Positions 9,681 through 61,262 of a stretch of 64,000 bases of DNA are shown in pieces. A program made the position numbers and the translations under genes. The notes under the pieces are model-generated. The model did no database searches. It was given only the letters and a program-made list of their open reading frames with translations, and was not told the DNA's origin. The stretch lies in assembly GCA_050949405.1 (NCBI GenBank), contig JBMNFQ010000001.1, forward strand, positions 168,166-232,165. The letters run 5' to 3'. The stretch comes from Limisphaerales bacterium. Lineage in GTDB: Bacteria; Verrucomicrobiota; Verrucomicrobiia; Limisphaerales; UBA1412. Numbering within the stretch: the first letter of the stretch is position 1; every line of letters begins with the position of its first letter.

Positions 9681-9730
9681 AATTGCGGCACCCTTGTCAA
9701 TGCAGGGGAAAGCCGATTGACTGGCAGTGG

Positions 9731-10237: not shown

Positions 10238-10311
10238 TGGCTGTCCGACCTGGATTTGAACCAAGACAGAGGCTTCCAAAGAGCCTAGTGCTACCATTAC
10301 ACCATCGGACA
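10238..10311 (-). tRNA. tRNA-Gln (TTG)
   Basis: Reverse complement TGTCCGATGGTGTAATGGTAGCACTAGGCTCTTTGGAAGCCTCTGTCTTGGTTCAAATCCAGGTCGGACAGCCA folds as a cloverleaf with anticodon TTG and encoded CCA. Confidence 0.95.
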
Positions 10312-10429
10312 AGCCGCGCAGAGAACATAACAATTCTCAGGCTCTGGGGCAAAGTATTTTTTAAATTAGTCTGGATTTTCCCCAGAATTACCTTAGAATC
10401 AGCCTCTGGTAACTGATAATCATGCTGCT

Positions 10430-11680: not shown

Positions 11681-11700
11681 GAAGCGCTCTTTCTAAAGCC

Positions 11701-11738
11701 AAACACCCTCCGGAAGAAATTCTTCCGGAGGGTGTTTT
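11701..11738. terminator. Bidirectional terminator between the MFS gene and the convergent znuB
   Basis: Inverted repeat AAACACCCTCCGGAAGAA / TTCTTCCGGAGGGTGTTT. Confidence 0.8.
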
Positions 11739-11753
11739 GTCACTGAAAATCGG

Positions 11754-38308: not shown

Positions 38309-38393
38309 AGTTTTCCCCGAGGAAGTCTATATGGGAGCCCCACATCGGAGCAAGAAGTTACGCTCTCATGGCGACTTCCGCCCGCTTCGCTCC

Positions 38394-39620: not shown

Positions 39621-39807
39621 CAGATACCCCTCCTTTCCGTTTTAATAAAATAGCTCTTTTTTCCCACAGTTAAAATCGGTATAATTCAACCCAGTGGGCT
39701 CTTTCCGTTAAGGCTATTGTCAGGCAAGCATCCGGAAATGCAAGCCTTTCTGCCCGAAACAGAGAGTTGAGGATGGATGTTTTAAAAAGAAGAGTTAAAA
39801 TGGAGCT

Positions 39808-41919: not shown

Positions 41920-41982
41920 ACTTGGGGGGCCGCCCGGAGGCATAGCCGGCCTCAGTTGTCAGTTCCGGCTTCATTTTTCACT

Positions 41983-42024
41983 TTTCGCAAGGACTCCACC
42001 CGGTTTCCTTGCGAAATTCTTTTT
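41983..42024 (+). terminator. Intrinsic terminator after the TPR gene, upstream of the cas operon
   Basis: TTTCGCAAGGA...TCCTTGCGAAA hairpin followed by TTCTTTTT. Confidence 0.7.
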
Positions 42025-42237
42025 CACCTTTATCCCTACCGCTTTTCCGTATCCTTCTTCACGTCAGAATTTCTCAGGTAAAATTTATTTCAAAAAAATT
42101 TCACTTTTCCGGGGGGACCCCCGTAATTGTCCTACCCCCTTTGCTAAAATTACCCCTGTTAATGGGAAAATTTACCCCCAACTGAAAAAACAAATGGACA
42201 CAGAGCACTTTTTTATAAAGAATGGGAGAGGGATACT

Positions 42238-42483
42238 ATGAGGAATCAAGAACCACTGGCACACTTGGAAAAGGCGTGTAATAAAGAGCAAAGCATGGAG
42301 GATCACCTTCAGGGCGTCGCAGAACTTGCCAAAAAATTCGCTGAAGAGTTTGGGAATGGTGACTGGGCCGAACAGGCAGGCCTCTGGCACGACCTGGGAA
42401 AATATAACCCGAAATGGCAAGAGTATCTGAGGAATCAAACCGACAGTTACTATAACCAGCCCGAAAGCGAGGAAGAGGAATAG
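42238..42483 (+). CDS. cas3: Cas3 HD nuclease, N-terminal fragment (ends at in-frame TAG)
   Basis: LAH...QSMEDHLQGVA...AGLWHDLGK; same reading frame as 42487. Confidence 0.85.
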   Translation: MRNQEPLAHLEKACNKEQSMEDHLQGVAELAKKFAEEFGNGDWAEQAGLWHDLGKYNPKWQEYLRNQTDSYYNQPESEEEE

Positions 42484-42486
42484 AAT

Positions 42487-44526
42487 ATGGGTAAAATTGA
42501 TCATTCTACCGCCGGCGCTATCCATGCAGTCAAAAAATTGGATAAACGGGGACGCATTCTGGCTTATATCATCGCCGGCCACCATGCCGGACTTCCCGAT
42601 TGGTCTTACGATGATGCAAAAGGAGGCCCACTGCACGAACGGCTTGAGGATAAGAAAAGGAACCTTAATGCCGCCATGGATGGGGCTCCCCCTGAAAAGA
42701 TTCTGGCACCTCTGCTTTCCGGTTTGTCAACACCCTGTATTGCGGGTAAGGACTCTGTAGAGTTTATCCATTTATGGATAAGAATGCTCTTTTCCTGCCT
42801 TATAGATGCAGACCGCCTGGATACAGAAGCCTTCATGAGTCCTGAAAAATCAGAAGCACGGGGAGGCTACCCTGAAATCAGCGAGCTGGAAAAGCTCTAC
42901 GATGGCTACATGAAGAAAAAACAGGATGAAGCCCCAGGCAGCCCTGTAAACGAAAAGCGCAAAGAGATACTTGCTCAGTGCCTCGAAAAAGCTCAAGAAC
43001 CTCCAGGAATCTTTTCACTGACCGTCCCCACCGGCGGAGGAAAAACTCTGGCCTCAATGGGGTTTGCTCTAAAACATGCCATGAGATATGGCAAAAAACG
43101 GATCATTATTGTGATCCCCTATACCAGCATCATTGAGCAGACGGCTGAAGAGATGCGAAAGGTCTTTGGTGAAGAAACTGTACTGGAGCATCACAGCAAC
43201 TTGGACCCTGATAAGGAAACTACGACATCCAGTCTGGTCAGCGAAAACTGGGATGCTCCCATTATCGTCACAACCAATGTTCAATTCTTTGAATCCCTCT
43301 TCGCTTCAAGAGGCTCTGCCTGCCGTAAGATACACAACATCGTCAACTCCATTGTCATCCTTGATGAAGCCCAAACGTTGCCTACCGATTTTCTGCAACC
43401 CATCGTCTCCGTGATGAAGGGCCTTTGCAATCACTTCAAAACCACTTTTGTTCTCTGTACAGCAACGCAGCCTGTTCTAAATAAAAACATTAAATCCGGA
43501 ATGGCTATTCTCAACGGGTTTGAAAAAGTGACGGAAATCATGGAGGATCCAAAAGCTTTGTATCACAGCTTTCAGCGTGTGGAGGTTTCCCAACATCAAA
43601 AAAATATCGAGCAGGAATCCTCCCTGGAAGAGATTGCCGAAGAAATCGTGGAACATCAGCAAGTGCTTTGCATTGTTAGCACCCGAAAGCGTTGCCGGGA
43701 ATTGTTTGATCTGGTTCGGAACAGGTCAACCGACGCAGTGGAGGTGCTACACCTCTCAGCCCTGATGTGTCCCATGCACCGCAGCGACGTTATCGCACAA
43801 ATCAAAGAAAAACTCCTGCTGGGAGAGCCGATTCGCGTCATTAGCACTCAGGTAGTAGAAGCCGGTGTGGATATCGATTTCCCCGTCGTCTATCGTGAAT
43901 TGGCCGGTCTGGACTCCATCGCTCAGGCAGCCGGCAGATGCAACCGTGAAGGCAAACTAACCGAAGGGGGCAAAGTGGTTATTTTCAATGCCGGCAGTAC
44001 TTTACGAGGGCAGTTTGCCAAAGCAAGACAAGCCTGCGAAGAGACACTCCGGCATATCCAACCCGGAAAAGAACTCGCTCCCGAGAATTTTGAAAAATAT
44101 TTCACCCATTTTTTTCATAGACTCAATAGCTTTGACCAAAAGCAGATCATGACTTTGCTGACGAATGATGCCGCTGAGTGCAAAATTCAATTTCGTACAG
44201 CAGCGATGCGCTTTAAACTGATTGATGACAGCCACCAGCACGCCATCATCGTCCGATATAAAGGGAAACGCGGCAAACAGCTCGATAGCAATGAGCTTTT
44301 GAAAAAATTAAAAAATGAGGCTGATACGATGTGTAGTAAAGAAAAAAGAAAAACACTAAGAAGATTACAACGATTCTCAGTTACCCTCTATGACAAAGAA
44401 TTTGAGAACCTTAAAAACCAGGGAGCACTCGAAGAAGTATCCGGTATCTGGGCTCAGTTTAAAGAAGAAATTTATACTTCTGAGTGCGGGTTGGATGCCA
44501 AAATTTTTTTAGATCAGATTTACTGA
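42487..44526 (+). CDS. cas3: Cas3 remainder: C-terminal half of HD domain + SF2 helicase
   Basis: DHSTAGA, GHHAGL, LIDADRLDT, PTGGGKT, DEAQ, TAT, STQVVEAGVDIDF and QAAGRCNREG motifs. Confidence 0.92.
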   Translation: MGKIDHSTAGAIHAVKKLDKRGRILAYIIAGHHAGLPDWSYDDAKGGPLHERLEDKKRNLNAAMDGAPPEKILAPLLSGLSTPCIAGKDSVEFIHLWIRMLFSCLIDADRLDTEAFMSPEKSEARGGYPEISELEKLYDGYMKKKQDEAPGSPVNEKRKEILAQCLEKAQEPPGIFSLTVPTGGGKTLASMGFALKHAMRYGKKRIIIVIPYTSIIEQTAEEMRKVFGEETVLEHHSNLDPDKETTTSSLVSENWDAPIIVTTNVQFFESLFASRGSACRKIHNIVNSIVILDEAQTLPTDFLQPIVSVMKGLCNHFKTTFVLCTATQPVLNKNIKSGMAILNGFEKVTEIMEDPKALYHSFQRVEVSQHQKNIEQESSLEEIAEEIVEHQQVLCIVSTRKRCRELFDLVRNRSTDAVEVLHLSALMCPMHRSDVIAQIKEKLLLGEPIRVISTQVVEAGVDIDFPVVYRELAGLDSIAQAAGRCNREGKLTEGGKVVIFNAGSTLRGQFAKARQACEETLRHIQPGKELAPENFEKYFTHFFHRLNSFDQKQIMTLLTNDAAECKIQFRTAAMRFKLIDDSHQHAIIVRYKGKRGKQLDSNELLKKLKNEADTMCSKEKRKTLRRLQRFSVTLYDKEFENLKNQGALEEVSGIWAQFKEEIYTSECGLDAKIFLDQIY

Positions 44527-44539
44527 TGAAAGGATAGGA

Positions 44540-45265
44540 ATGGAAAACAACTATACAAACAAAGAATTCTGTCTGGAGGTCACGGGCGATTACGCCTGTT
44601 TCACCCGGCCGGAAATGAAGGTAGAGCGGGTCAGCTACGACGTAATCACGCCCTCAGCCCTCCGCTCCATCTTCGAAGCCATTCTTTGGAAACCGGCCAT
44701 CCGGTATATTCCAACGAAAATCGAAATTCTGAATCCCATTAAATGGGTTTCGGTGAGAAGAAACGAATTGTCCAGTATCGCCAGCACAAGAATCGGTTCA
44801 CGCGAAAAAGGTGTTTTTATTGAAGAGGATCGCCAGCAACGAGCCGGACTCTTTCTGAGAGATGTCGCCTACCGCCTCTATGCGGAGCTCGTGTTTATTC
44901 CTCCGGATAAACGCATGAAAGTGAAAAATCCCTTACCTGATTTCCTGGCGGATGAATTTGAAAAAAAGGAATTTTGGCCAAGGGATGAAAACCCGGGGAA
45001 ATACAATGCCATGTTTGAACGACGTGCCAGCAAGGGCCAATGCTTTAACCAGCCTTACTTGGGATGCCGCGAGTTCAGTTGCAGCTTCCGCTTCATTGAA
45101 GATCCGTCGAAAGAAACCAAAAAACCGATCAAGGAAACGAGAGACCTCAGCATTATGCTTTACGATAGGGATTACAACTCCAATAACCCGATGTTCTTCC
45201 GCGCCAAAATGGAAAGCGGTGTCATCACGATTCCGGAACCCGAAAGCGAGGAGGTTTTAAGATGA
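44540..45265 (+). CDS. cas5: Type I-C Cas5 (Cas5c/Cas5d)
   Basis: ACFTRPEMKVERVSYDVITPSA, WKP and QPYLGCREF motifs. Confidence 0.97.
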   Translation: MENNYTNKEFCLEVTGDYACFTRPEMKVERVSYDVITPSALRSIFEAILWKPAIRYIPTKIEILNPIKWVSVRRNELSSIASTRIGSREKGVFIEEDRQQRAGLFLRDVAYRLYAELVFIPPDKRMKVKNPLPDFLADEFEKKEFWPRDENPGKYNAMFERRASKGQCFNQPYLGCREFSCSFRFIEDPSKETKKPIKETRDLSIMLYDRDYNSNNPMFFRAKMESGVITIPEPESEEVLR

Positions 45266-47436
45266 TACTTCAGGAACTTTGTAAGTACTATGAACGGATT
45301 CCGAATGTGCCGCCTCCTGGTGCGACTTGGAGAAAGATACCATTTCTTGTTGTGATCAATAAAGAGGGTGAGTTTGTTGATATAGAAAGCACCTGGGACG
45401 ACAGTGGTAAAGCAAAAGATTTTTTAGTTCCCGTAGCTTCTTTACGAACAAGTGGAACAAAGCCTAATCTTCTCTGGGATAAACCGGATTATGTCTTTGG
45501 TGTCGGACCAAAAAATAAAGAAAAGAGAAATAAAGAAAGGAATGATTCTTTTATAAATCTTATCGAAATTTTTTTTAACGAAGAAGATGTAGCAGAAAAG
45601 GTTAAGCCTTTAATTAATTTTTTAAAAAATTCACCTACTGAAAAAATAGAAAAAAAGGCTTCAATCAATAAAGAGATTAAAAATAAATGGATTGAAATTA
45701 AAAATGGTTCTGAAATATGTTTTAGAATAATAGAATATTCAGATGATTTGTGTTCTGTTTTGAAAGTTTTTTGGCTAAAACATTGGTTAACATATTGGTT
45801 AGGTAATGAAACTACTTCCTCTTTAAAGGAAGCTGAGAAACAAATTTGCCTCATCACTGGAATTAAAAATAATATTGTAAGGATACATCCTGGAATTAAA
45901 GGCATAGGAGGTAATCAACCCAAAATAATTTCTTTTGATAAAAACACTCCCTCTTATAATTCTTATCAAAAAGAAGAGGGTAGCAATGCACCTGTTTCAG
46001 AAGAAGCTGTTTTCAAGTATGTGACTGCATTGAATACGTTGACAGAAGAAGGATCAATTAATACAACTCGACTCGAAGATACTAGGTTAGTGTTTTGGTC
46101 GGATGAAAAAACCGTTTTTGAAAGTAGTTTTTCTGCGTTGTTCGGCAACAATTCTACAGAAAAAGAAGATTTTTCAAAAATATTTAATTTTGAAACTAAG
46201 AACAATCCAAATAAAAACATAAGAGCGATAAAGAATCTTTATTCTAGCATTTACGCAGGAAGATTGTTGAAAGAAGAAACAAGTAATAATTTCTATATTT
46301 TAGGTCTTTCCGCTCCAACTAAAGGAAGAGCGTGTATAAGACTATGGAAAACAGGAAAAGTTTCAGAGTTTTCAAGACATATTAAACAATATTTTGATGA
46401 TATAAAAATTATTGGATATGAAAATATTAATGGTTATTTTCAGTTATATAAAATTTTAAATGAATTGTTTATAAAAACAGGAAATAAAGATAAAACATTA
46501 AAGGATAAAAAAGATAAGATACCTTCTAAAATTTCAAGAGATATTATTAATTCTTCTATTACTGAAGATATGTTTCCAATCGTTATGTTGCAAAGAGCAA
46601 TACAACGTATTCGAGCTGTCCAGGATGTCTCAGTAATTCGAGCAGGAGTTTTAAAAGCATATCTAAACAGATATGTAAGAATTCAGAAAAATCCTGAAAA
46701 ATTATTGAATATAGCATTAGATGAAGAAAATACAAATGCGGCCTATTGTTTTGGAAGGATTTTTGCAGTTTTGGGCAAGGTACAAGAATATATTAACCCT
46801 AAATTAGATGCTCCTATTCGAAACCGATTTTACGGAGGGGCCTCTATAACGCCCGTGAGAGTATTTCCTCACCTGATGAAACTGGCAACACATCATCTTT
46901 CGAAGCTTAGGAAAAAAAATCGAGGTTTGATGACTCTCAGAGAAAAACTATTGGATATTATTTTTCAAAAGTTTACTGCTTTAAATGAAAGGGCAAAACC
47001 ACTCACTTTGGATGATCAGGCACGCTTTGCTATTGGTTATTATCATCAGGTGCAGAGCTTTTATTATGATGATTATCTTGAAGAACAGGAGAAAAACATG
47101 GCACTAAATAAAGAAGAAAAAAATATTGGTTATCTTTTAGGACGTCTTTTTGGCATTCTCGAAGAAATACAGAAAGAGGCCAGTGGCGATCTCAATGCTA
47201 CAATTAAGGATCGCTTTTTTAGCGCAGCTATGGAAACACCAAAACGTATATTCCCAGAGCTGAGAAAACTATCTGAACACCATCTTAAAAAAATAAAAAC
47301 TTATAAAAAAGATGGTTTTAATAAAACGATAGATAATATTATTAATAATATTTCTATAGAAAATGTTCCTTCGACTCTATCTATTGAGGATCAATGGAAT
47401 TTCATCGTTGGTTATCATCACCAACGTAAAAACTAG
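45262..47436 (+). CDS. cas8c: Type I-C Cas8c (Csd1) with duplicated C-terminal Cas11-like domain
   Basis: MILQELCKYY, RTSG.KPNLLWD, CLITG, FYILGLSAP, and two copies of the Y..GR.F..L...Q...RF......P...FP.L.KL..HHL.K...Q..F..GY.HQ module. Confidence 0.92.
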   Translation: MILQELCKYYERIPNVPPPGATWRKIPFLVVINKEGEFVDIESTWDDSGKAKDFLVPVASLRTSGTKPNLLWDKPDYVFGVGPKNKEKRNKERNDSFINLIEIFFNEEDVAEKVKPLINFLKNSPTEKIEKKASINKEIKNKWIEIKNGSEICFRIIEYSDDLCSVLKVFWLKHWLTYWLGNETTSSLKEAEKQICLITGIKNNIVRIHPGIKGIGGNQPKIISFDKNTPSYNSYQKEEGSNAPVSEEAVFKYVTALNTLTEEGSINTTRLEDTRLVFWSDEKTVFESSFSALFGNNSTEKEDFSKIFNFETKNNPNKNIRAIKNLYSSIYAGRLLKEETSNNFYILGLSAPTKGRACIRLWKTGKVSEFSRHIKQYFDDIKIIGYENINGYFQLYKILNELFIKTGNKDKTLKDKKDKIPSKISRDIINSSITEDMFPIVMLQRAIQRIRAVQDVSVIRAGVLKAYLNRYVRIQKNPEKLLNIALDEENTNAAYCFGRIFAVLGKVQEYINPKLDAPIRNRFYGGASITPVRVFPHLMKLATHHLSKLRKKNRGLMTLREKLLDIIFQKFTALNERAKPLTLDDQARFAIGYYHQVQSFYYDDYLEEQEKNMALNKEEKNIGYLLGRLFGILEEIQKEASGDLNATIKDRFFSAAMETPKRIFPELRKLSEHHLKKIKTYKKDGFNKTIDNIINNISIENVPSTLSIEDQWNFIVGYHHQRKN
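47098..47436 (+). CDS. cas11: Internally translated Cas11c small subunit (112 aa)
   Basis: In-frame ATG (MALNKEE) preceded by AGGAG at 47087-47091. Internal Cas11 translation from cas8c is established for type I-C. Confidence 0.75.
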   Translation: MALNKEEKNIGYLLGRLFGILEEIQKEASGDLNATIKDRFFSAAMETPKRIFPELRKLSEHHLKKIKTYKKDGFNKTIDNIINNISIENVPSTLSIEDQWNFIVGYHHQRKN

Positions 47437-47475
47437 CTTACACAAACAGTATATGTAATTTAAAATAAATTAATT

Positions 47476-48513
47476 ATGAATGAAAATAATACAATAAAAA
47501 ACCGTTATGAATTTGTCCTTCTATTCGATGCGACAAATTGCAACCCCAATGGTGATCCGGATGCGGGCAATATGCCTCGTATTGATTCTGAAACACACCG
47601 TGGTCTAGTGACTGACGTCTGTATAAAACGAAAGATAAGAAATCGAATACAGATTCGAACTGTTAATAACAATGATTTAAATAAAAATAATTATGATATA
47701 TTTATAAAAGAAAAAGCCGTATTAAATAACTTAATCAAAGAAGCATATGACTCTCTTGAAACTAAATCTGAGAAAAAAATAGTGACACCATCTGATGCTC
47801 AAAAATTCATGTGCGAAAAGTACTATGATGTAAGAACATTTGGAGCTGTTATGAGTACTGGTGGGAAAGAAGATTCAAAAAACGATTCTGAATCTGAAAA
47901 TGATGAGATAAAAATTGATAATACTAAAAAGAAAGGCGAAAAAACTGATAAGAGTAAAAAATCAAAAAATGCCGGGCAGGTAAAAGGACCAATTCAATTA
48001 TCATTCGCTACCTCTATTAGCCCTATTTTCGAGCATCCACATTGCTTAACAAGGTGTGCTGTTACGAAAGAAGCTGATATTGATAAGGAACAAACCATGG
48101 GACGAAAATACACAATTCCTTATGGCCTCTACCGCGCGCATGGATATATTTCCGCTTTTCGGGCTCATAAGACCGGTTTTTCAAAAAAAGACCTGCAAAT
48201 ATTTTGGGAAGCTCTCCTTAACATGTTTGAAGAAGATCCCTCCTCTTCCCATTCCGGAATGACAGTCTGCGCCCTCTATGTGTTTAAACATTCCTCTCAA
48301 CTGGGAAATATGTATGCAGCTGATGTGTTCGATAGCGTAGAAATAACTGAAACTGAAAATAAACCTCCGCGTTCTTTTAGAGACTATAAGGTGACCCTAA
48401 AAACCGAGAAACTTGGAGATAAAGTCACTTTCCTTCGCTACCGTGATCGCTGGAATCCCGAGTTAGAAGATGGAGTTGAAGACCCGACGATAGCTGAAGA
48501 ATCGAAAGGCTAA
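47476..48513 (+). CDS. cas7: Type I-C Cas7 (Csd2)
   Basis: NRYEFV, NPNGDPDAGNMPRID, TDVCIKRKIR, DVRTFGAV, TMGRK and YGLY motifs. Confidence 0.97.
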   Translation: MNENNTIKNRYEFVLLFDATNCNPNGDPDAGNMPRIDSETHRGLVTDVCIKRKIRNRIQIRTVNNNDLNKNNYDIFIKEKAVLNNLIKEAYDSLETKSEKKIVTPSDAQKFMCEKYYDVRTFGAVMSTGGKEDSKNDSESENDEIKIDNTKKKGEKTDKSKKSKNAGQVKGPIQLSFATSISPIFEHPHCLTRCAVTKEADIDKEQTMGRKYTIPYGLYRAHGYISAFRAHKTGFSKKDLQIFWEALLNMFEEDPSSSHSGMTVCALYVFKHSSQLGNMYAADVFDSVEITETENKPPRSFRDYKVTLKTEKLGDKVTFLRYRDRWNPELEDGVEDPTIAEESKG

Positions 48514-48539
48514 CCAAATAATCAGCAATGAACTGATAA

Positions 48540-49265
48540 GTGATCAACCCCAAATATGCGGAGTCGGACTATATCATGATCTCCGCTTTGCAGCACGTTG
48601 CTGTTTGTCCGAGGCAATGTGCGCTCATTCACAGCGAGCAACTCTGGGAAGATAACCGCTGGAGTGCCGAAGGCGAACTCCTCCACCAGCGCGTGGATAA
48701 AGGAGGAGAAGAAAAACGTGGCGAGCTCATCACCGCGCGCTCCGTCCGCCTAAGCCATCCCGAGCTGGGGATTACAGGAATCGCTGATATGGTGGAGTTC
48801 CGTAAATGGAACCCACAAAGCAAAGACTCCCCGCCACAGCAGGAGACTCTGCTAACCACAACCGAGCTCCCACACCGCCGGGGCCGCTGGATACCCTGCC
48901 CCGTCGAATACAAGCGGGGCAAAAGTAAACTCGAAGACTGGGACCGAGTACAACTTTGCGCTCAGACGCTCTGTCTGGAGTCAATGTACAAAATACGAAT
49001 TGACCGTGCAGCGCTTTGGTATGATTCAACCAAAAGCCGTGAATGGGTCACCCTTGATGAGTCCCTCAGAGAGAAGACGCTCTCCCTGATTGCCCAGGCC
49101 CACGAGCTGCTCCGCTCCGGCATAACCCCTCCACCGGTGTATGACCGGCGACGCTGCTCCGCCTGCTCCCTCTACGAAGTCTGCCGGCCGCGCGATTACA
49201 ACCCTCAGCGCCTGGAGCGCTACCATCAGAGCCTCTTCACTATCCAGGAACCCGAAGAGCCATAA
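48540..49265 (+). CDS. cas4: CRISPR-associated exonuclease Cas4
   Basis: ISALQH...CPRQ, GIADMVE, PVEYKRG, QLCAQ and C..CSL...C motifs. Confidence 0.95.
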   Translation: MINPKYAESDYIMISALQHVAVCPRQCALIHSEQLWEDNRWSAEGELLHQRVDKGGEEKRGELITARSVRLSHPELGITGIADMVEFRKWNPQSKDSPPQQETLLTTTELPHRRGRWIPCPVEYKRGKSKLEDWDRVQLCAQTLCLESMYKIRIDRAALWYDSTKSREWVTLDESLREKTLSLIAQAHELLRSGITPPPVYDRRRCSACSLYEVCRPRDYNPQRLERYHQSLFTIQEPEEP

Positions 49266-49280
49266 CAAAAACAGAACAAA

Positions 49281-50315
49281 ATGAAAAAACTTCTGAATAC
49301 TCTCTACATCACAAGCCCGGAAGCCTGGCTCCGCCGCGATGGCGAAACAGTAGAAATCCAGATACAGGGCAAAAAAGCAGGCAAACTCCCCGTTCACGGG
49401 TTGGAGAGCATTGTCTGCATGGGCTACAACGTCCTGATTACCCCCTCCCTGATGGAGCTCTGCGCCAGCCGCGGGGTCAGTATGGTTTATCTGAGCCAGA
49501 ACGGTCGCTTCCAGGCGCGCGTGGAGGGCCCGCTCAGCGGAAACGTGCTCCTGCGAAAAGAACAGTACCGTATCTCTGATGATGAACCCCGAGCGCTGCC
49601 GATCGCCAAAGCCTGCGTTGCTGCAAAAATACAGAATAGCCGCTCTAACCTGATGCGTCACTTGAGGAATCATCAGAATACTGACGGTAAAGAAAATATT
49701 GAGAAGGCGATAAACCGCCTGGCAATCCTCCTCAAAGAGGCTCAGGACAGTGCCACACTGGATGAGCTCAGAGGATACGAGGGTATCTGCGCAGATGAAT
49801 ATTTTTCGGTGTTCGACCACATGATAGTCGCACAGAAAAACGATTTCCGCTTTCTGAAGCGCTCACGCCGTCCGCCCCTGGACCGCGTCAATGCGCTCCT
49901 CTCATTCCTCTACGTTTTGCTGGCCCATGCCTGCCGCTCTGCCCTGGAATCTGTAGGTCTGGACCCTGCCGTCGGGTTCCTCCATAGAGACCGACCCGGC
50001 AGGCCCAGTCTTGCGCTGGATTTGCTGGAGGAATTCCGACATCCCATTGCAGACCGTCTGGTACTCTCATTGATTAACTTGCAAACAGTGCAGGCCAAAG
50101 ATTTCATTATCGGCCCCACCGGCGCCGTGGAAATGAGCGACGATACACGAAAGACGATCCTTCAGACCTGGCAGAAAAGAAAGCTCGACGAAGTCCAGCA
50201 TCCGTATCTGGAAGAGACGATCTCACTGGGGCTCTTCTTCCACGTGCAGGCGCAGCTCCTGGCCAGGACGATCCGGGGCGATATGAAATACTACCCCGCT
50301 TACATGAATCGATAA
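49281..50315 (+). CDS. cas1: Type I-C Cas1
   Basis: MKKLLNTLY, GNVLLR, LRGYEG, RRPPLD.VNALLSFLY, GFLH and LALDLLEEFR motifs. No RT domain. Confidence 0.97.
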   Translation: MKKLLNTLYITSPEAWLRRDGETVEIQIQGKKAGKLPVHGLESIVCMGYNVLITPSLMELCASRGVSMVYLSQNGRFQARVEGPLSGNVLLRKEQYRISDDEPRALPIAKACVAAKIQNSRSNLMRHLRNHQNTDGKENIEKAINRLAILLKEAQDSATLDELRGYEGICADEYFSVFDHMIVAQKNDFRFLKRSRRPPLDRVNALLSFLYVLLAHACRSALESVGLDPAVGFLHRDRPGRPSLALDLLEEFRHPIADRLVLSLINLQTVQAKDFIIGPTGAVEMSDDTRKTILQTWQKRKLDEVQHPYLEETISLGLFFHVQAQLLARTIRGDMKYYPAYMNR

Positions 50316-50316
50316 A

Positions 50317-50610
50317 ATGCTTGTCCTGGTTACTTATGACGTGAACACGGCTTGCCCGGAAGGGCAAAGAAGGCTCCGACAAATCGCGAAAGTCTGCGAA
50401 AACAAAGGCCAGCGCGTTCAGTATTCCGTCTTTGAATGCGACCTTGAGCCAGCACAGTGGGTCAAAATGAAGGAAAAACTTCTAACACTTTTTGATCCGC
50501 AGAAGGATAGCTTGCGGTTCTACTTTCTGGGAAGTAATTGGGAACGCAAAATAGAGCACCATGGAGCCAAAGAATCTTATCACCCGACCCGGGATACCTT
50601 GATGTTTTGA
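50317..50610 (+). CDS. cas2: Cas2
   Basis: MLVLVTYDV, RVQYSVFEC and DSLRFY motifs. Confidence 0.97.
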   Translation: MLVLVTYDVNTACPEGQRRLRQIAKVCENKGQRVQYSVFECDLEPAQWVKMKEKLLTLFDPQKDSLRFYFLGSNWERKIEHHGAKESYHPTRDTLMF

Positions 50611-50783
50611 AGTTGCGCTAAGCGGACGTTCTCATGAAAACCCCCTCAGTTTAGCAGTCACTCTCTTTGAAGACGTTAATGTATATCTCCAGCCTTGAAA
50701 TAAGGTGGATTTTGAAAATTCTAACGAGCTCAGCGGAAATGCCTTTAAATTTTACTGCAAATCAATTACTTTCAGCGCATAGA
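50611..50783 (+). promoter_or_regulatory. CRISPR leader
   Basis: AT-rich non-coding 173 bp between cas2 and the first repeat. A degenerate repeat at the far end of the array supports this orientation. Confidence 0.8.
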
Positions 50784-53700
50784 GTCGCACCCTTCACGGG
50801 TGCGTGGATTGAAACCCAATGCAGTATATCTTTCAACACTATCTAACAAGTCGCACCCTTCACGGGTGCGTGGATTGAAACACCGTCATACCCGTATCCG
50901 CGATAAAGTCGCACCCTTCACGGGTGCGTGGATTGAAACATTTGTTCCTGAAAAGTACCCCGTTTGTCGCACCCTTCACGGGTGCGTGGATTGAAACAAG
51001 CTATCGGGCTGACCACCTTTCGTGGTCCGATGAACGGGTCGCACCCTTCACGGGTGCGTGGATTGAAACACGGTAGATAATTTCGTCATTCTCCACCGGT
51101 CGCACCCTTCACGGGTGCGTGGATTGAAACATCTAATCACGTTAGTGAGCTTTAAGTTGTCGCACCCTTCACGGGTGCGTGGATTGAAACAGAGGATACT
51201 ACCAAGCGATGCTTTAAAGTGGTATATCGTCGCACCCTTCACGGGTGCGTGGATTGAAACAGGGTTCAGGCTGGCTTCAGGCATACATCAGCAGATCACT
51301 GAAGTCGCACCCTTCACGGGTGCGTGGATTGAAACATCACTCTTCGATGCGACCACTGCTTCAATGCGGTTTCCATGGTCGCACCCTTCACGGGTGCGTG
51401 GATTGAAACAACCGTAACTCGTACGCGTATACCAGCCAATCACGTCGCACCCTTCACGGGTGCGTGGATTGAAACACATCTCGCGAGCTCAACGTCGAAA
51501 TCGGTCGCACCCTTCACGGGTGCGTGGATTGAAACATGCCAGTTCGTTGCAGTGACTTCGTGCTGTTGACTCGCGGCGTCGACAGTCGCACCCTTCACGG
51601 GTGCGTGGATTGAAACAACCGTAACCGATTGTACTTAGGCGCGTGGGCGTAACGATTCACGTCGCACCCTTCACGGGTGCGTGGATTGAAACACAGTTAA
51701 CCTAAGGTTAATCAGTTGGTCGCACCCTTCACGGGTGCGTGGATTGAAACCCGTAATCGTACATGCATCGTCCCGCAGTCGCACCCTTCACGGGTGCGTG
51801 GATTGAAACATTGGACAGTTGGTTCTGCTTGAAACTAGCTGTCGCACCCTTCACGGGTGCGTGGATTGAAACATGTTCTGAGTTAGATGACCGGCTATGG
51901 TCGCACCCTTCACGGGTGCGTGGATTGAAACAACATCAATTATATCGCCTGAACCACCGCCTATAGGTCGCACCCTTCACGGGTGCGTGGATTGAAACAC
52001 CACCTTCGATACCTTTGGCATCTTTAATCGTATGTCGCACCCTTCACGGGTGCGTGGATTGAAACACCAGTATAATTCGTGCTTACACACCTAACCCTAA
52101 GTCGCACCCTTCACGGGTGCGTGGATTGAAACATTGCTGGACGCTATCATCGCCGGTGTTTCAAAGTCGCACCCTTCACGGGTGCGTGGATTGAAACAAA
52201 CATCGTTTTACTTGGCATCTTCTAATTCCTCTGTCGCACCCTTCACGGGTGCGTGGATTGAAACTTTACTTCTCCAAACGAATACGGGCGATATTTAAGT
52301 CGCACCCTTCACGGGTGCGTGGATTGAAACATAGCATTTGACCTTGGAGTCCGCCTTGATGGTCGTCGCACCCTTCACGGGTGCGTGGATTGAAACATTG
52401 TATATCCTTATTTTATTTGTTTTCCAGCTCAGTCGCACCCTTCACGGGTGCGTGGATTGAAACACCAGTATAATTCGTGCTTAACACACCTAACCCTAAG
52501 TCGCACCCTTCACGGGTGCGTGGATTGAAACATCTAACCCGTTTAATATCTTGTTTAACTTGTCCAGTCGCACCCTTCACGGGTGCGTGGATTGAAACAT
52601 TTGGCTTTACAAACTGATAGTCCAGCGGAAAACGTCGCACCCTTCACGGGTGCGTGGATTGAAACATGCAACTGAATATGCACTTGCAAGATGGCTAAAG
52701 GTCGCACCCTTCACGGGTGCGTGGATTGAAACGACTGCAAACAATTTTAGCGGGCTATCCCTGTTAGTCGCACCCTTCACGGGTGCGTGGATTGAAACAA
52801 CCTGTTCAATATCTTCATACTCTTCCATAGTAAGTCGCACCCTTCACGGGTGCGTGGATTGAAACATCAAATCCTATATACTCATTATACGCCAGTTCGT
52901 CGCACCCTTCACGGGTGCGTGGATTGAAACGTGATTGGGACGTTATCATATCAAACGAAGATGTGTCGCACCCTTCACGGGTGCGTGGATTGAAACTTAA
53001 GATTGCCTGCAAGCAGGACTGGCAGGATGGTGTCGCACCCTTCACGGGTGCGTGGATTGAAACATATTCAGTCGAGTTACCTTTATCCCTTGCCGCTGCG
53101 TCGCACCCTTCACGGGTGCGTGGATTGAAACACCGGATGACATTGATAACTATCGGTTAAACGTTGTCGCACCCTTCACGGGTGCGTGGATTGAAACACT
53201 GGTTTCAGCAACGCACCTGTTCCAACCGAAAAGTCGCACCCTTCACGGGTGCGTGGATTGAAACAGACTGTAAAACGGCGGTCAGATGCGTCAGCGGCGT
53301 CGCACCCTTCACGGGTGCGTGGATTGAAACTGGCTTTAAAAGACCTTTGATAATATCAAACTCGGTCGCACCCTTCACGGGTGCGTGGATTGAAACAAAG
53401 AAGTTTTTCTGTTTCGTCAGTCTGTTGCGATGTCGCACCCTTCACGGGTGCGTGGATTGAAACTTTTGTTGGCGTCTCGTCAAAGAGGTGCCCTCTCGGT
53501 CGCACCCTTCACGGGTGCGTGGATTGAAACGTTTTATTATCTCAAAGCCAAAGTCTTGCCCGCCGTCGCACCCTTCACGGGTGCGTGGATTGAAACTGCG
53601 CTGGCATTCCTGCAAAAATCGGATAAGCTTTGTCGCACCCTTCACGGGTGCGTGGATTGAAACATCAAATCCTATATACTCATTATACGCCAGTTCTCGT

Positions 53701-56700
53701 CGCACCCTTCACGGGTGCGTGGATTGAAACAAGCAGGTCTTCTCTCTTTATATAGATTCTTTTTGTCGCACCCTTCACGGGTGCGTGGATTGAAACTGGG
53801 GAGGTAGTTAAAAATGCTGAAACATTCGAGACGTCGCACCCTTCACGGGTGCGTGGATTGAAACTCAAACAAAGCGTACACGGCTGCCATACCCAGCCGG
53901 GTCGCACCCTTCACGGGTGCGTGGATTGAAACACGGGGATGACACGCCTAGTGCCCGTATCTTTGATGGTCGCACCCTTCACGGGTGCGTGGATTGAAAC
54001 GATTTTAGCGTAGATTTTTTTAAAGTCCTTTCGGACGTCGCACCCTTCACGGGTGCGTGGATTGAAACGCGGGAATCGCTTGAAAGGATACTTTGCTTTT
54101 CAGGTCGCACCCTTCACGGGTGCGTGGATTGAAACAATCACGAACTCCTGCCGTTGCCAGCTACCTAAAGTCGCACCCTTCACGGGTGCGTGGATTGAAA
54201 CAATAACAGGCCAGTCTCCTTCAGGGTTATACTCCAGTCGCACCCTTCACGGGTGCGTGGATTGAAACAGTATAAGCGGCTGGAGAAAGATGTAGATATT
54301 TCAGTCGCACCCTTCACGGGTGCGTGGATTGAAACATCAAACGTACAGCCTATCTTATACCCAGTAAATAAGTCGCACCCTTCACGGGTGCGTGGATTGA
54401 AACTCTGGGTAATAATACGTACTAATAACTGCTCGTAGTGTCGCACCCTTCACGGGTGCGTGGATTGAAACAGCATTATCTAGGCAGGAACCCGCCTACC
54501 TTTGAAGTCGCACCCTTCACGGGTGCGTGGATTGAAACTTATGCCTTCACCACATTGCAGCAGTCGGATGACGTCGCACCCTTCACGGGTGCGTGGATTG
54601 AAACTTGCGGGTTATCTTCTCTACATAGCTTCTAAGGTTGTCGCACCCTTCACGGGTGCGTGGATTGAAACTTTAAACAGCAAGTATGCCGAGAAACACG
54701 GGTATGGTCGCACCCTTCACGGGTGCGTGGATTGAAACATGCCCTATATTGGAAGAGTGCATACCAGAAAGGCGTCGCACCCTTCACGGGTGCGTGGATT
54801 GAAACCGGCCTACCCGAACATACTCAGGTACCATCCTGGGGGTCGCACCCTTCACGGGTGCGTGGATTGAAACATTTACTTCGTTAAAAGAAGTAGTTTT
54901 ACCAAAAGGTCGCACCCTTCACGGGTGCGTGGATTGAAACGTTGGAGAATCCTCTCGGGTAAGCGTCCGGTGCCCGGTCGCACCCTTCACGGGTGCGTGG
55001 ATTGAAACTTGTGGCAGCGCATGTTTGGCGCACAGCCCCGAGTCGCACCCTTCACGGGTGCGTGGATTGAAACATATAATCATTCCTACAGGTTATTTCT
55101 ACCTATCCGTCGCACCCTTCACGGGTGCGTGGATTGAAACCCTTTGCCAGTATAACCGGGTCTTTGGTCTCTGAGTCGCACCCTTCACGGGTGCGTGGAT
55201 TGAAACTGCTGACGGTCTGATACCTTCGCCAATCAATAACGGTCGCACCCTTCACGGGTGCGTGGATTGAAACTCATGCCCTTGGTGCGATACGCCGAAT
55301 TCAAAAAGTCGCACCCTTCACGGGTGCGTGGATTGAAACTTCCAAACAACGCTTGTACCTTGGCCTATCCTTCAGGTCGCACCCTTCACGGGTGCGTGGA
55401 TTGAAACATGGTATGTTTATTCTTTAACCATCATCCCAGCCAGTCGCACCCTTCACGGGTGCGTGGATTGAAACTGGAGATGGCGCGCGGCCAGAACGAG
55501 GTCAATATGTCGCACCCTTCACGGGTGCGTGGATTGAAACGATAAATAATACTTAAGCCGCCTTGGACGCCCGTACGTCGCACCCTTCACGGGTGCGTGG
55601 ATTGAAACGGAAGGAGATAGTTATTTTGATTTAGTGGATGAGTCGCACCCTTCACGGGTGCGTGGATTGAAACAACCATACGAAGTATACTCACCACCTT
55701 GCTTTGAGGTCGCACCCTTCACGGGTGCGTGGATTGAAACACGGGCACTTCCTGCACTTGCTTCAATGATATCCTGTCGCACCCTTCACGGGTGCGTGGA
55801 TTGAAACGGCCAGATAATCACGGAGGCGTCTAAAGTCAACCGTCGCACCCTTCACGGGTGCGTGGATTGAAACAGCGAGCCTGACCTCTGGAAAAAGTAA
55901 TCTGTACTGTCGCACCCTTCACGGGTGCGTGGATTGAAACCTTGATAAAAGTAAGTAAAAACTATGCCTATGATTGGTCGCACCCTTCACGGGTGCGTGG
56001 ATTGAAACAAGACGCAGAAAAGCACAAGGAAAACCTGATCAGTCGCACCCTTCACGGGTGCGTGGATTGAAACCTGTTGGCGACGGGGTGGTGGTGACTA
56101 AAGTTGACGTCGCACCCTTCACGGGTGCGTGGATTGAAACAAAGATCAAAAAATTACTGGAGTGCAGTTTTAGGGTCGCACCCTTCACGGGTGCGTGGAT
56201 TGAAACGTAAAAACGAATAATGTTGCTAACGGCAGCGTGGTCGCACCCTTCACGGGTGCGTGGATTGAAACATCTCAGCGATTTTGGTAGGCTCGGAGCC
56301 GGTATGGTCGCACCCTTCACGGGTGCGTGGATTGAAACTGCGTATCAGGAGGCTATCACGATGTGGCACCTATAGTCGCACCCTTCACGGGTGCGTGGAT
56401 TGAAACAGACTGGGCCCGTTGTAATAATTCCTTATTCCTAGGTCGCACCCTTCACGGGTGCGTGGATTGAAACATAATTGGTGATAAAATAATAAGATTA
56501 GGGTGTGAAGTCGCACCCTTCACGGGTGCGTGGATTGAAACTTTTTTGGTACTGCTTCCATCCGCGGGGCCGTGAGGTCGCACCCTTCACGGGTGCGTGG
56601 ATTGAAACAAGACGGCAAGGTGCTGATGCATTGCTTTGCCGGGTCGCACCCTTCACGGGTGCGTGGATTGAAACTCCAATCCTTATTGGTAAAATAGGAA

Positions 56701-59700
56701 GGACAGTCGTCGCACCCTTCACGGGTGCGTGGATTGAAACTTTATGATGCAGAGGGCAGGATGAAATCCTTAGCGGTCGCACCCTTCACGGGTGCGTGGA
56801 TTGAAACATCCAAATCTCGACATCTCGTATCGTGCCCAGCAGTCGCACCCTTCACGGGTGCGTGGATTGAAACGCGTCTCAGGTTGTGGATCGCAAAAAG
56901 GCATACTTGTCGCACCCTTCACGGGTGCGTGGATTGAAACGTTTATTGTATCCCGACGGGCAATAACCCGACTTAAGTCGCACCCTTCACGGGTGCGTGG
57001 ATTGAAACCTTTTGGGCTCTGATGCAGTCAGGTCTGTAATAGGGTCGCACCCTTCACGGGTGCGTGGATTGAAACGCCGTAGCTGTACCCGAACGATGCT
57101 GATACCTTTGGTCGCACCCTTCACGGGTGCGTGGATTGAAACGCCTAACTCCTGCCCGCATATATCACACCTATTCAGTCGCACCCTTCACGGGTGCGTG
57201 GATTGAAACGTTGCTGCTTAGATTGGACCCCAAAAAAGATAGGTCGCACCCTTCACGGGTGCGTGGATTGAAACAAAATTAAGCTTCTGATAATCGGTAT
57301 CCGTGCAGGTCGCACCCTTCACGGGTGCGTGGATTGAAACACGCTGTAACCGTTTTGATTTAGCCCGCCAACTGGTCGCACCCTTCACGGGTGCGTGGAT
57401 TGAAACATCAATTATGTTTTCATCTATAACTGTACCTTGGATGTCGCACCCTTCACGGGTGCGTGGATTGAAACAAATTGGACCCAAAAAAAGATAAGGC
57501 GATAGCTCGGTCGCACCCTTCACGGGTGCGTGGATTGAAACATCAAGACCAGCAGCACCAACGCGAGTTGTAGAAGTCGCACCCTTCACGGGTGCGTGGA
57601 TTGAAACTTCTGACTTCATTAAGGAGTTTCTCGGCAACGCTAGTCGCACCCTTCACGGGTGCGTGGATTGAAACGTCCAGATTGCGTATAATAAGAGAGG
57701 CAGGACGTGTCGCACCCTTCACGGGTGCGTGGATTGAAACAAAATCATTGTCTATCCGGCCAATTAACCGATGCGTCGCACCCTTCACGGGTGCGTGGAT
57801 TGAAACAGGTGTTTGGTCGGGTAGTCCGGGAATACTCAGAGTCGCACCCTTCACGGGTGCGTGGATTGAAACATGAGATACTGGAGACGTTATGTTTGGA
57901 CCGTAGGTCGCACCCTTCACGGGTGCGTGGATTGAAACATATTCCCTGATTTTGCCAGACATGCCCAGCAGAGTCGCACCCTTCACGGGTGCGTGGATTG
58001 AAACAACTTGGCTGTTCGGGAAGCTTACAGGTTGGCTCGGTCGCACCCTTCACGGGTGCGTGGATTGAAACCACAGTCCACATCAGATAAAGCAAATATA
58101 TCAAAGTCGCACCCTTCACGGGTGCGTGGATTGAAACAATCAAAAGATGGAGGGCGATGAAGTAAAAAACGGTCGCACCCTTCACGGGTGCGTGGATTGA
58201 AACCCATCTAAAGACACCTTTGCAGGAAGTAATGGAGGTCGCACCCTTCACGGGTGCGTGGATTGAAACTTTGGATGTCGTTAATAATTTCGCAATTGCA
58301 GGAAGTCGCACCCTTCACGGGTGCGTGGATTGAAACTTAATAAGGATGTAGAAGAGGGTGCTGCAGTCTTAGTCGCACCCTTCACGGGTGCGTGGATTGA
58401 AACCCATACCTGCCTAAACGCAAGCAGCAACCAAAGTCGCACCCTTCACGGGTGCGTGGATTGAAACAATCATATCTATCCCAGCCAGATATGCCGATAA
58501 CGTCGCACCCTTCACGGGTGCGTGGATTGAAACATCATCCGTCAGATTTTAGCTAATGTTGCACTCTGTCGCACCCTTCACGGGTGCGTGGATTGAAACC
58601 GATGATTTTGAAAGTCAACCACATGATTCGAGAAGTCGCACCCTTCACGGGTGCGTGGATTGAAACCTCTGTTTTTTAATCAGGTAAAAGGGTTGAAAGG
58701 TCGCACCCTTCACGGGTGCGTGGATTGAAACAGAAGATATTGTGGATAGCCCTGAAGAGACAGAAGGTCGCACCCTTCACGGGTGCGTGGATTGAAACAT
58801 TGTATACATAAACAAGCATTCTCTATTCATACCAGTCGCACCCTTCACGGGTGCGTGGATTGAAACTGGATAATATAAGGGTACTGTGTAACTTTTTAAA
58901 CAGTCGCACCCTTCACGGGTGCGTGGATTGAAACAAGCGACCGGTCAATGACAGCATCGTGGAAGGTAGTCGCACCCTTCACGGGTGCGTGGATTGAAAC
59001 CATCGTATAGCCCTGTAGAAGAAACGGTCTGGGGGTCGCACCCTTCACGGGTGCGTGGATTGAAACAGGCAGGTAATCATGCAGCTTACGTCGGCCAGCC
59101 GTCGCACCCTTCACGGGTGCGTGGATTGAAACACCTAATATACCACCTAAACTCATTAAAAACAAGGTCGCACCCTTCACGGGTGCGTGGATTGAAACCG
59201 GTTAAAGAATAAATGCCCTTGTTTAACCCCGCAGTCGCACCCTTCACGGGTGCGTGGATTGAAACAGTCCAGCCGGGTTTAGAAGAAAGTTTTTGTATGG
59301 TCGCACCCTTCACGGGTGCGTGGATTGAAACAAGCATGATGGCGAGGCTTGCAGGGCCAAGGAACGTCGCACCCTTCACGGGTGCGTGGATTGAAACGAT
59401 AAATGGCAACTTTATTTCTTTGAGATGGTGGGTCGCACCCTTCACGGGTGCGTGGATTGAAACTAATAATCGATTTGGTTATTCCGTTCTCGGTAACGTC
59501 GCACCCTTCACGGGTGCGTGGATTGAAACGCCAGCTCAGCCGACGCCACCCAGCAGACGGCAAGTCGCACCCTTCACGGGTGCGTGGATTGAAACAGGGA
59601 TGTAAAGAATTTCGCCAATCGGGACCTTGGGGTCGCACCCTTCACGGGTGCGTGGATTGAAACTTATGTAACCTAACATTTTCTTTACCGCCTATGGCGT

Positions 59701-61262
59701 CGCACCCTTCACGGGTGCGTGGATTGAAACCAACAGGCTGGCACATTCCCGCAGGCTGTCACCTTCGTCGCACCCTTCACGGGTGCGTGGATTGAAACAA
59801 AGATTGGCGCAGTTATTTGATTGCTCATCATCGTCGCACCCTTCACGGGTGCGTGGATTGAAACCCAGCTCAGCCGACGCCACCCAGCAGACGGCAGTAG
59901 TCGCACCCTTCACGGGTGCGTGGATTGAAACAGACCTCCTCCGTAATCTGGCTCTCCTCCGTAATTGTCGCACCCTTCACGGGTGCGTGGATTGAAACTC
60001 GGCCAGAACCACCAACCCGAGTTGCAGAATCAGTCGCACCCTTCACGGGTGCGTGGATTGAAACATTTTATATGGCCATTTGGGGCTTTGGAATGGGAGT
60101 CGCACCCTTCACGGGTGCGTGGATTGAAACACAGATCATGTAATCTTTCAACCCTTTAACCGCATGTCGCACCCTTCACGGGTGCGTGGATTGAAACCCA
60201 AAAGACAGCGTTTGAACTTGCCTGGGATGAGGTCGCACCCTTCACGGGTGCGTGGATTGAAACTGAAAAGTGAATTCTCCATTTTCATATTTTGAAAGTC
60301 GCACCCTTCACGGGTGCGTGGATTGAAACTTGCAAGATAAGCTTCTTAAAAATTATATCGAAGTCGCACCCTTCACGGGTGCGTGGATTGAAGCCGGAAG
60401 GGTTCAAAGTTTCGGATGACGACGGCGAGTCGCACCCTTCACGGGTGCGTGGATTGAAACATTAAAAGCTGCGCCTGTACATCCCAACGACGGAAGTCGC
60501 ACCCTTCACGGGTGCGTGGATTGAAACATTAAAAGCTGCGCCTGTACATCCCAACGACGGAAGTCGCACCCTTCACGGGTGCGTGGATTGAAACTTGAAA
60601 TTTCCAGTGGCGCGGAAAGGTGGACGTTGTCGCACCCTTCACGGGTGCGTGGATTGAAACAGTTGGAAAAGATGATGGTACTCCCATCACGGTTGTCGCA
60701 CCCTTCACGGGTGCGTGGATTGAAACACTCCACCGTTTGGCAAGCGGCTTTCGATCAAAGGTCGCACCCTTCACGGGTGCGTGGATTGAAACAGAGAGCT
60801 TTTGAGTGATACGACCTTGAGAATAAGTCGCACCCTTCACGGGTGCGTGGATTGAAACGCCTTCGCTGTTCTTGACTGTGTAAACCAGAGTAGTCGCACC
60901 CTTCACGGGTGCGTGGATTGAAACGGTGAAGTTGCGTAAAATGTTGATTATGAAGGACTGTCGCACCCTTCACGGGTGCGTGGATTGAAACGATACTTAC
61001 AACTTTAAACGTAAATCGTAAATATTTGGTCGCACCCTTCACGGGTGCGTGGATTGAAACCGAAGAAATTCATAATAACGCAAAATTGGCCCATTGTCGC
61101 ACCCTTCACGGGTGCGTGGATTGAAACTCGGAGCTGAATCGGAGACCGAATCGGAGACCGAGTCGCACCCTTCACGGGTGCGTGGATTGAAACCGCCTCG
61201 AGCTGGTCGGGGGTCTCTTCGTATTCAAAAGTCGCACCCTTCACGGGTGCGTGGATTGAAAC
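50784..61262 (+). CRISPR. Type I-C CRISPR array, about 158 repeats of GTCGCACCCTTCACGGGTGCGTGGATTGAAAC
   Basis: 32-bp repeat with a CGCACCC/GGGTGCG hairpin; about 158 copies by manual count. One variant ends GAAGC at 60363. Degenerate terminal repeat GCCGCGTCCTTATGG at 61299. Confidence 0.99.

Follow-up and report, generated by a model that had tools for sequence, protein, structure and literature searches.

Two tandem Cas11-like modules in a type I-C Cas8c, with a predicted internal cas11c start retained at the second

The Cas8c protein of a type I-C CRISPR-Cas locus from a Limisphaerales bacterium carries two tandem Cas11-like modules at its C-terminal end instead of one. The locus lies in a 64,000-nucleotide (nt) stretch of contig JBMNFQ010000001.1 (positions 168,166 to 232,165 of the forward strand, assembly GCA_050949405.1), referred to here as the window and numbered from its first letter. 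The cas8c gene is a single open frame of 724 codons (45262-47436), and its product matches the Csd1 family profile end to end over residues 6-601, after which the last 115 profile positions are matched again by residues 613-724. Taken separately, module 1 (amino acids (aa) 484-612) matches PF09709 with an E value of 2.7e-36 and module 2 (aa 613-724) with an E value of 5.6e-39; both fall on PF09709 positions 444/445-559, NCBIfam TIGR01863 concurs, and BLASTP aligns the modules with each other at 34% identity over 114 columns (E 9e-23). The full-length family matches exceed the curated cut-offs (PF09709, 593 bits versus 27 over positions 1-559; TIGR01863, 514 versus 218.65), and cas8c sits between cas5c and cas7c, with a type I-C array, as is the context of Cas8c/Csd1. 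The canonical Cas8c ends in a single bundle and two are present here, so that on its sequence the protein is a departure from the single-module architecture within the Cas8c/Csd1 family. A preliminary description of this DNA had proposed two tandem Cas11-like domains, had quoted peptide strings for both and had expected two matches from a scan with the Csd1 C-terminal/Cas11 profile. The strings are present in the cas8c translation and two matches were obtained (PF09709 and TIGR01863); the outcome that it held open, a single profile hit or fold, does not hold, there being more than one of each.

The folds were compared as predicted models only, using a whole-protein AlphaFold2 model from a 76-row alignment and comparisons by Foldseek and VIA. 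The whole Cas8c model (predicted local distance difference test (pLDDT) 87, predicted template modelling score (pTM) 0.77) has five helices in each module and resembles solved Cas8c chain 8g9t_K (Foldseek E 3.6e-31, TMt 0.81); its residues 1-608 align with that chain over 551 residues (VIA Z 35.4), and as a predicted structure the protein has the fold of solved Cas8c. Both modules likewise have the sequence and predicted fold of Cas11c. Among sequences of the PDB, the Neisseria lactamica I-C Cas11 chain 8g9s_H is matched by module 1 with E 2.1e-21 and by module 2 with E 8.1e-20, and the Desulfovibrio vulgaris Cas11c chain 7kha_K with E 3.7e-16 and 3.9e-17, respectively. Model residues 485-601, comprising module 1, superpose on Cas11c 9jhc_A (VIA Z 16.9, root-mean-square deviation 1.1), and module 2 modelled alone (pLDDT 88, five helices) resembles Cas11c 8dex_J (Foldseek E 7.8e-8, TM 0.89/0.86).

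The two modules differ in the signals at their starts. Module 1 begins with ATA (I484, 46711-46713); the stretch before it is aaaaatcctgaaaaattattgaat-ATA, and the 24 nt upstream are without a Shine-Dalgarno motif. Module 2 begins with ATG (M613, 47098-47100), with AGGAG at 47087-47091 followed by 6 nt (aaaaac), and a product from M613 would measure 112 aa. This is the only strong in-frame Shine-Dalgarno plus ATG inside cas8c, the sole other in-frame site resembling one being a weak GAGG followed after 4 nt by ATG at 46930, within module 1. When 275 modules from 268 family proteins were aligned, the residue in the M613 column was methionine in 159, valine in 95, isoleucine in 5 and another residue or a gap in 16, the five isoleucines including module 1 of the window Cas8c and of its homologue P0002. 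DNA was compared for 19 single-module relatives: 8 have ATG and 1 has GTG as the aligned codon, and for the other 10 the alignment to the profile sets in a few residues further on or an ATG lies one to four codons away; all nine ATG or GTG relatives have AAGGA or AAGGAG upstream, in six of them as AAGGAG, 6 nt, ATG. Since the layout at module 2 equals that of these relatives, module 2 is seen, by comparison, to hold the canonical cas11c initiation region (AGGAG, 6 nt, ATG), and by the same comparison neither the start codon nor the Shine-Dalgarno motif has survived at module 1. A start codon with a ribosome-binding site, as expected for Cas11c, is thus found at module 2 and not at module 1. 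The genome's three 16S rRNA genes end in a CCTCC-bearing tail and the start of cas8c itself is preceded by GAGGAGG, so the host can use such sites, and we infer on good grounds that a 112-aa product would be translated separately from ATG 47098. No further source of Cas11c was found in the whole genome, where the Csd1 profile matches only the cas8c of the window. The preliminary description had given the ATA of module 1 and the ATG and AGGAG of module 2, 6 nt apart, exactly as they stand in the DNA, and its claim that only module 2 keeps a translation start is borne out by the matching AAGGAG, 6 nt, ATG in the relatives.

The junction between the modules is real and not a product of assembly. 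Records of the same 724-aa protein, without a difference, come from 9 contigs of four sources, and the cas8c-cas7 stretch occurs in 20 of 24 listed public runs (18 studies, of biogas or digester type), 6 of the 20 being RNA libraries. Contigs from three of these libraries, belonging to three studies, cross the junction and show no stop there: a 3498-nt contig of run X1 (record 3) over 45245-48740, gapless and differing in one letter, a 2058-nt contig of run X18 (record 21) over 46619-48656 with no difference, and a 6407-nt contig of run X2 (record 24) over 42363-48749. Because RNA libraries may hold DNA and the contigs are without transcript ends, they are used here for continuity of sequence only. 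That the modules are separate cas8c and cas11 genes whose dividing stop was missed, an outcome that the preliminary description had allowed for, is scarcely credible with an identical protein from so many contigs, three junction-crossing contigs without a stop, a junction likewise open in P0002, and modules that are only 34% alike; nothing speaks for it beyond one DNA contig of depth 5 (run X13, record 12) with a single gap somewhere within 45825-48234. P0002 is the only close homologue (87% identical, 724 aa) and has both modules, I484, M613 and the open junction. Compared with the window Cas8c it is 85.5% identical over residues 1-483, 87.6% in module 1 and 92.0% in module 2, and shares 14 of the 16 linker residues; the module values being no lower than that of the N-terminal part, both modules are conserved no less than the rest of the protein. 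After P0002 the best homologues reach 42% identity and have lengths of 573-600 aa.

Multi-module forms were sought more widely by scoring a two-module profile against 1.84 billion representative proteins, which gave 3876 hits at E <= 0.001. Among the best 150 of the 3876, one matched stretch was seen in 147, two in P0002, three in P0122 (858 aa) and four in P0121 (1003 aa); scores sum over stretches, so multi-module proteins should rank high, and forms with weak modules, or in clusters with a single-module representative, would be missed. A search with residues 484-724 covered both modules only in P0001 and P0002 among the best 120 of 1061, and a search with the four-module region of P0121 added P0393 (1023 aa, 79% identical to P0121), also with four modules. 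Scanning species genomes with P0122 led to the cas8c of Dubosiella muris NM09_H32 (locus L025), which is 78% identical, 858 aa long and three-modular, and lies in a full operon of cas3, cas5, cas8c, cas7, cas4, cas1 and cas2. Metagenome contigs scanned with P0121 gave only relatives of about 31% identity; genome contigs gave single-module relatives only when scanned with P0002 and no match when scanned with P0121. A local scan of 505 family proteins counted one module in 494, two in 3, three in 6 and four in 2. In 61 related genomes Cas8c was present in 12, with two module matches only in the genome of the window, and 2 of 7 same-genus genomes have a Cas8c, both single-module with open frames of 594 and 598 aa. 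The linkers that follow the GYxxQ end of a module measure about 16 residues in the window protein and about 15-33 in the other multi-module proteins, lengths close to that of the natural C-terminal tail. Judged from these sequences, the multi-module form is rare but recurrent, being found in three lineages with 2, 3 and 4 modules. No description of tandem Cas11 modules in Cas8c was found in the literature searched, a search with supplements and subscription journals outside its range.

According to O'Brien 2020 and McBride 2020, the canonical I-C Cascade contains seven Cas7, one Cas8c, one Cas5c and two Cas11c, and Cas8c's C-terminal domain shares the Cas11c fold and caps or starts the Cas11c minor filament. 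With this domain and two Cas11c, the canonical belly holds three such units; the premise of the preliminary description, that canonical Cas8c has one such domain which is also made as Cas11c, agrees with both papers. For the window locus the reading favoured here, at a probability of roughly 60%, is that cas8c gives two products, with module 1 serving as the Cas8c C-terminal domain and module 2 acting both as a tethered unit and as one free copy. The 724-aa Cas8c would consist of the N-terminal part, module 1, the 16-residue linker and module 2, and the upstream AGGAG would direct initiation at ATG 47098 of a free Cas11c of 112 aa with the same sequence as module 2. Module 1 would stand in for the canonical C-terminal domain; of the two Cas11c positions, the first would go to tethered module 2 and the second to a free copy of it, such that the minor filament would still have three units but would draw on one free small subunit rather than two. 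In this reading the copies diverged once duplicated, with module 1 relieved of the role of free subunit and module 2 of docking on the body of Cas8c. The separate translation, the positions of the modules in the complex and the stoichiometry are all things that we infer.

The three-module locus of D. muris bears on this count. Its module-start codons are GAG, GTT and GCA, its spacers are 33-37 nt long, and no further Cas11 module is encoded on its contig, so that from sequence its Cas8c fits a belly made wholly by one polypeptide. (That contig has CRISPR repeats at both ends, at 1-500 and 9500-11900, in 35 copies with spacers all of 33-37 nt.) A chain of three units whose aligned module starts lack a canonical start codon, in a locus with normal spacers, suggests by analogy that a tethered module stands in for a free subunit and is not an addition; given a count of three units, the window Cas8c would supply two and the retained start the third. 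In the preliminary description the tether was held to add an extra small subunit; the tandem tether stands, and the extra unit is weakened by D. muris. It is unlikely that the tethered module is truly extra, whether as part of a four-unit belly (module 1, tethered module 2 and two free Cas11c) or with module 2 lying off the filament, where it could serve as spare, docking site or decoy, for example against Cas11-binding inhibitors. The four-module Cas8c of two diverged members shows that one chain can accommodate more than three units, and the window array has spacers of up to 49 nt among its 17 newest; on the other side, 140 of its 157 spacers are 32-37 nt, the canonical length that three units serve (O'Brien 2020), and the three-module D. 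muris locus has regular spacers.

Several points weigh against the two-product, three-unit proposal. The four-module Cas8c (P0121, P0393) do not fit a strict three-unit belly. In D. muris a GTG with AGGA upstream lies five codons before module 1, and on this sequence its cas8c may also yield an internal product. The 112-aa product of the window is a prediction from sequence, and the RNA-library contigs, from libraries that may hold DNA, tell neither where transcription starts or ends nor its level. The whole-protein model draws the linker as a helix over 583-618 that runs on from the last helix of module 1, at a lower confidence (pLDDT 62-77), and such a helix, if rigid, may bar module 2 from the Cas11.1 position. 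A complex prediction of aa 484-724 with free module 2, run without controls, scored 0.22 against a mark of 0.32 and speaks neither for nor against the proposal. With an in-frame TAG in cas3, interference by the window locus is not assured. Finally, 172-aa cas8c fragments in other assemblies (P0269, P0271) match up to ...LLDIIFQ (about 46960) and end in SLLL, which indicates a frameshifted cas8c in some assemblies or strains.

The origin of the modules was examined by tree-building with 68 modules. In the resulting tree P0121's four modules group together (support 100), as do the three of P0122 (support 93), and this grouping within proteins points to separate duplications in place in the three- and four-module lineages. 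Modules 1 and 2 of the window have long stems (1.36 and 0.82), and the free tree search did not unite them; a tree that forces them together is not rejected by the approximately unbiased (AU) test (p 0.69) and has a log-likelihood 14.3 above that of the free search, a gain that long-branch attraction could favour. Each window module is about 50% identical to the canonical C-terminal domains of P0123 and P0277-P0280, which are also among the nearest relatives of the N-terminal part of the protein (37-39%), while the modules are 34-38% identical to each other. From these comparisons we take the window modules to stem from an old in-place duplication, after which both copies diverged quickly. Fusion with a downstream cas11c that was formerly a separate gene, or with the 3' end of another cas8c, is an improbable origin for the second module; the functional unit would then have stayed Cas8c through module 1 plus free Cas11c, with read-through as a by-product. 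Such a fusion could account for modules that are not sisters in the free tree and that stand closer to canonical domains than to each other, and stand-alone proteins of 116-142 aa (P0166, P0172, P0185, P0235, P0250) do run from exactly the Cas11c start (MALD/MSLD...) to beyond the end of the module, although these may equally be internal frames called on broken cas8c genes as true cas11c genes. The higher likelihood of the joined tree, weak either way given the long branches, and the conservation in P0002 of the linker (14 of 16 residues) and the open junction argue for duplication in place instead.

The surrounding type I-C CRISPR-Cas locus is complete and is read on the + strand; its genes are named from NCBIfam and Pfam matches (Table 1).

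Table 1. Features of the type I-C locus, in window coordinates
Feature	Coordinates	Strand	Remarks
cas3 5' piece	42235..42483	+	HD nuclease motif region, 82 codons, ends at in-frame TAG 42481-42483; TIGR01596 cas3_HD positions 2-54, E 1.8e-14
cas3 remainder (rest of HD, helicase)	42487..44526	+	679 aa; ATG one codon past TAG; TIGR01587 cas3_core E 4.8e-44; TIGR01596 positions 64-177
cas5c	44540..45265	+	TIGR01876 type I-C Cas5c, E 6.4e-68
cas8c	45262..47436	+	724 aa, two C-terminal Cas11-like modules; PF09709 E 8.3e-178; TIGR01863 E 4.2e-154
Low-GC cassette (cas8c, cas7, first cas4 codons)	45291..48552	+	No DNA counterpart in same-genus locus G005
Module 1 helical bundle, aa 484-596	46711..47049	+	Starts ATA; PF09709 positions 445-559
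Linker, aa 597-612	47050..47097	+	VQSFYYDDYLEEQEKN; contains AGGAG 47087-47091
Module 2, aa 613-724 and stop codon	47098..47436	+	Predicted internal cas11c frame, 112 aa; PF09709 positions 444-556
cas7c	47476..48513	+	345 aa; TIGR02589 type I-C Cas7/Csd2, E 8.7e-92
cas4	48540..49265	+	GTG start; TIGR00372, E 1.3e-33
cas1c	49281..50315	+	TIGR03640, E 9.6e-146
cas2	50317..50610	+	TIGR01573, E 1.6e-18
CRISPR array	50784..61262	+	158 repeats of 32 nt, 157 spacers; 3' end of repeat ATTGAAAC

Base composition and comparison with a same-genus genome (G005) show that cas8c and its neighbor cas7 differ from the rest of the locus. The content of guanine plus cytosine (GC) is 0.27-0.34 over 45500-47999, versus 0.42-0.64 in the other listed bins of 38000-56000. 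Against G005, blastn gives 78.7% identity over 40974-45290 and 88.8% over 48549-50817, with only a 152-nt match of 71% between them; the stretch without a counterpart spans cas8c and cas7 up to the fourth codon of cas4 and ends near gene borders, and at the equivalent place G005 has a 588-aa cas8c and a 290-aa cas7. The low GC and the absence of a G005 counterpart between conserved flanks indicate that the two-module cas8c arrived together with its cas7 as a foreign cassette. By the same sequence comparison the effector is a hybrid, in which the resident Cas5c and Cas3 and the adaptation genes must work with a foreign Cas8c and Cas7. The window Cas7 is 345 aa long compared with 290 aa in G005, and has a stretch in mid-protein rich in lysine, aspartate and glutamate (around GGKEDSKNDSESENDE...KSKKSKNAGQ). 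In RNA-library contigs from other samples the 3' half of cas5 (44623-45183) shows dozens of differing sites, with 12 nt inserted behind 45183, and in the same contigs the cas8c-cas7 cassette differs by 0-1 letters. Other samples also have different sequences after the first repeat (50815), so that the arrays differ at the leader end between strains.

In cas3, the in-frame TAG falls inside the HD domain and is followed by AAT ATG (42481-42489), with the frames open on both sides. The identical TAG-AAT-ATG is present in cas3 of G005 (locus L015, about 4838-4846), the DNA being only 79% identical, and this sharing suggests that Cas3 is maintained, in two pieces or by read-through, and is not simply in recent decay. 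These observations also bear on whether the two-module cas8c could be a neutral or decaying oddity, a duplication in a non-interfering locus with no functional consequence, which is judged quite improbable. The cas3 TAG, the frameshifted 172-aa fragments in other assemblies and the foreignness of the cassette to the locus all accord with decay. Decay is harder to reconcile with modules at least as conserved as the rest (P0001 compared with P0002), with a TAG and open flanking frames common to a genome so different in DNA, with leader-end arrays that vary between strains right after the first repeat, or with multi-module forms that arose in three lineages, each having diverged members.

The preliminary description had further proposed that the duplication could alter tolerance of variable crRNA length or anti-CRISPR sensitivity, and had asked whether two-module loci show broad spacer lengths. 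A link to broad spacer lengths is not seen generally, the three-module locus being regular and the window array irregular in only 17 of its 157 spacers. These are the 17 leader-proximal spacers (50816-51958), which measure 34, 26, 26, 40, 29, 28, 38, 43, 42, 34, 28, 49, 44, 26, 27, 31 and 27 nt, whereas the remaining 140 measure 32-37 nt; the same-genus genome G003 and D. muris have regular arrays. The adaptation genes, not Cas8c, determine how long spacers are. A possible cause of the irregular newest spacers is a change in adaptation after the swap replaced the start region of cas4, the swapped-in start being a GTG without a Shine-Dalgarno motif, by which Cas4 expression may have been changed. 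Spacers beginning with A number 15 of the 17 leader-proximal and 70 of the 140 others. A megablast search of the whole array against 50,697 phage records gave no match and so yielded no protospacer-adjacent motif.

Type I-C is among the commonest of CRISPR types, and in its canonical form one sequence serves both as the C-terminal domain of Cas8c and as free Cas11c, roles that the gene in the window separates. The 2-, 3- and 4-module forms vary the tethered share of the belly and thereby provide a natural experiment on this dual-role sequence, in which the reading favoured here predicts one free Cas11c per complex in the window and none in the three-module form. A broader generalization is offered tentatively and is perhaps somewhat more apt to be wrong than right: tandem Cas11 modules may be a recurrent route, evolved several times, to a single-chain minor filament, where the window would represent a half-way state (two units tethered, one free), the 3-module genes would carry the whole belly and have dropped internal translation, and the 4-module genes would extend it. 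If this is true, the number of tethered units would set the length of the belly and remove the need to balance two products of one gene, which could be important where phage inhibitors act or where a foreign cassette comes to be expressed in a new host, as in this locus. In the N. lactamica I-C platform for editing in human cells, the hidden Cas11 is supplied as a component of its own (Hu et al. 2023, a preprint, citing Tan et al. 2022), and a natural Cas8c that carries small subunits in its chain could remove that extra component. The swap of cas8c and cas7 further shows that effector subunits are exchangeable as a cassette inside an otherwise conserved locus.

Compared with known systems, the window locus is close in plan to the I-C Cascades of D. 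vulgaris and N. lactamica (7KHA, 8DEX, 8G9S/8G9T), with which it shares the operon of cas3, cas5c, cas8c, cas7, cas4, cas1 and cas2, the I-C repeat, the predicted Cas8c fold (Z 35.4 to 8g9t_K), Cas11c-like modules, and an internal Shine-Dalgarno and ATG at a module start. It differs from them in having two C-terminal modules, 34% identical to each other, rather than one, and in having the start site before module 2, such that the free product would differ from the domain that follows the body of Cas8c. The D. muris protein (L025, P0276), the P0122 cluster, P0121 and P0393 also have tandem C-terminal Cas11-like modules joined by linkers; unlike the window protein, these have more modules and no conserved methionine at the module starts, and for this reason they probably carry the whole belly in one chain. 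Usually separate subunits are likewise fused into one polypeptide in single-chain class 1 effectors such as the type III-E Cas7-11, which in contrast is an RNA-targeting type III effector that fuses a Cas7 backbone with one Cas11 and has no homology to Cas8c. The large-subunit genes of types I-B and I-D resemble the window gene in making a small subunit from an in-frame internal start (McBride 2020; PMC11899642) and, as described, have one small-subunit-like region versus two. Type I-F Cas8f also holds a small-subunit-like bundle covalently within the large subunit (McBride 2020), but this is a single bundle in an unrelated family, with no internal start, no free Cas11 and a short minor filament, whereas the Cas8c of the window joins a second tethered bundle to a predicted start for a free copy of it.

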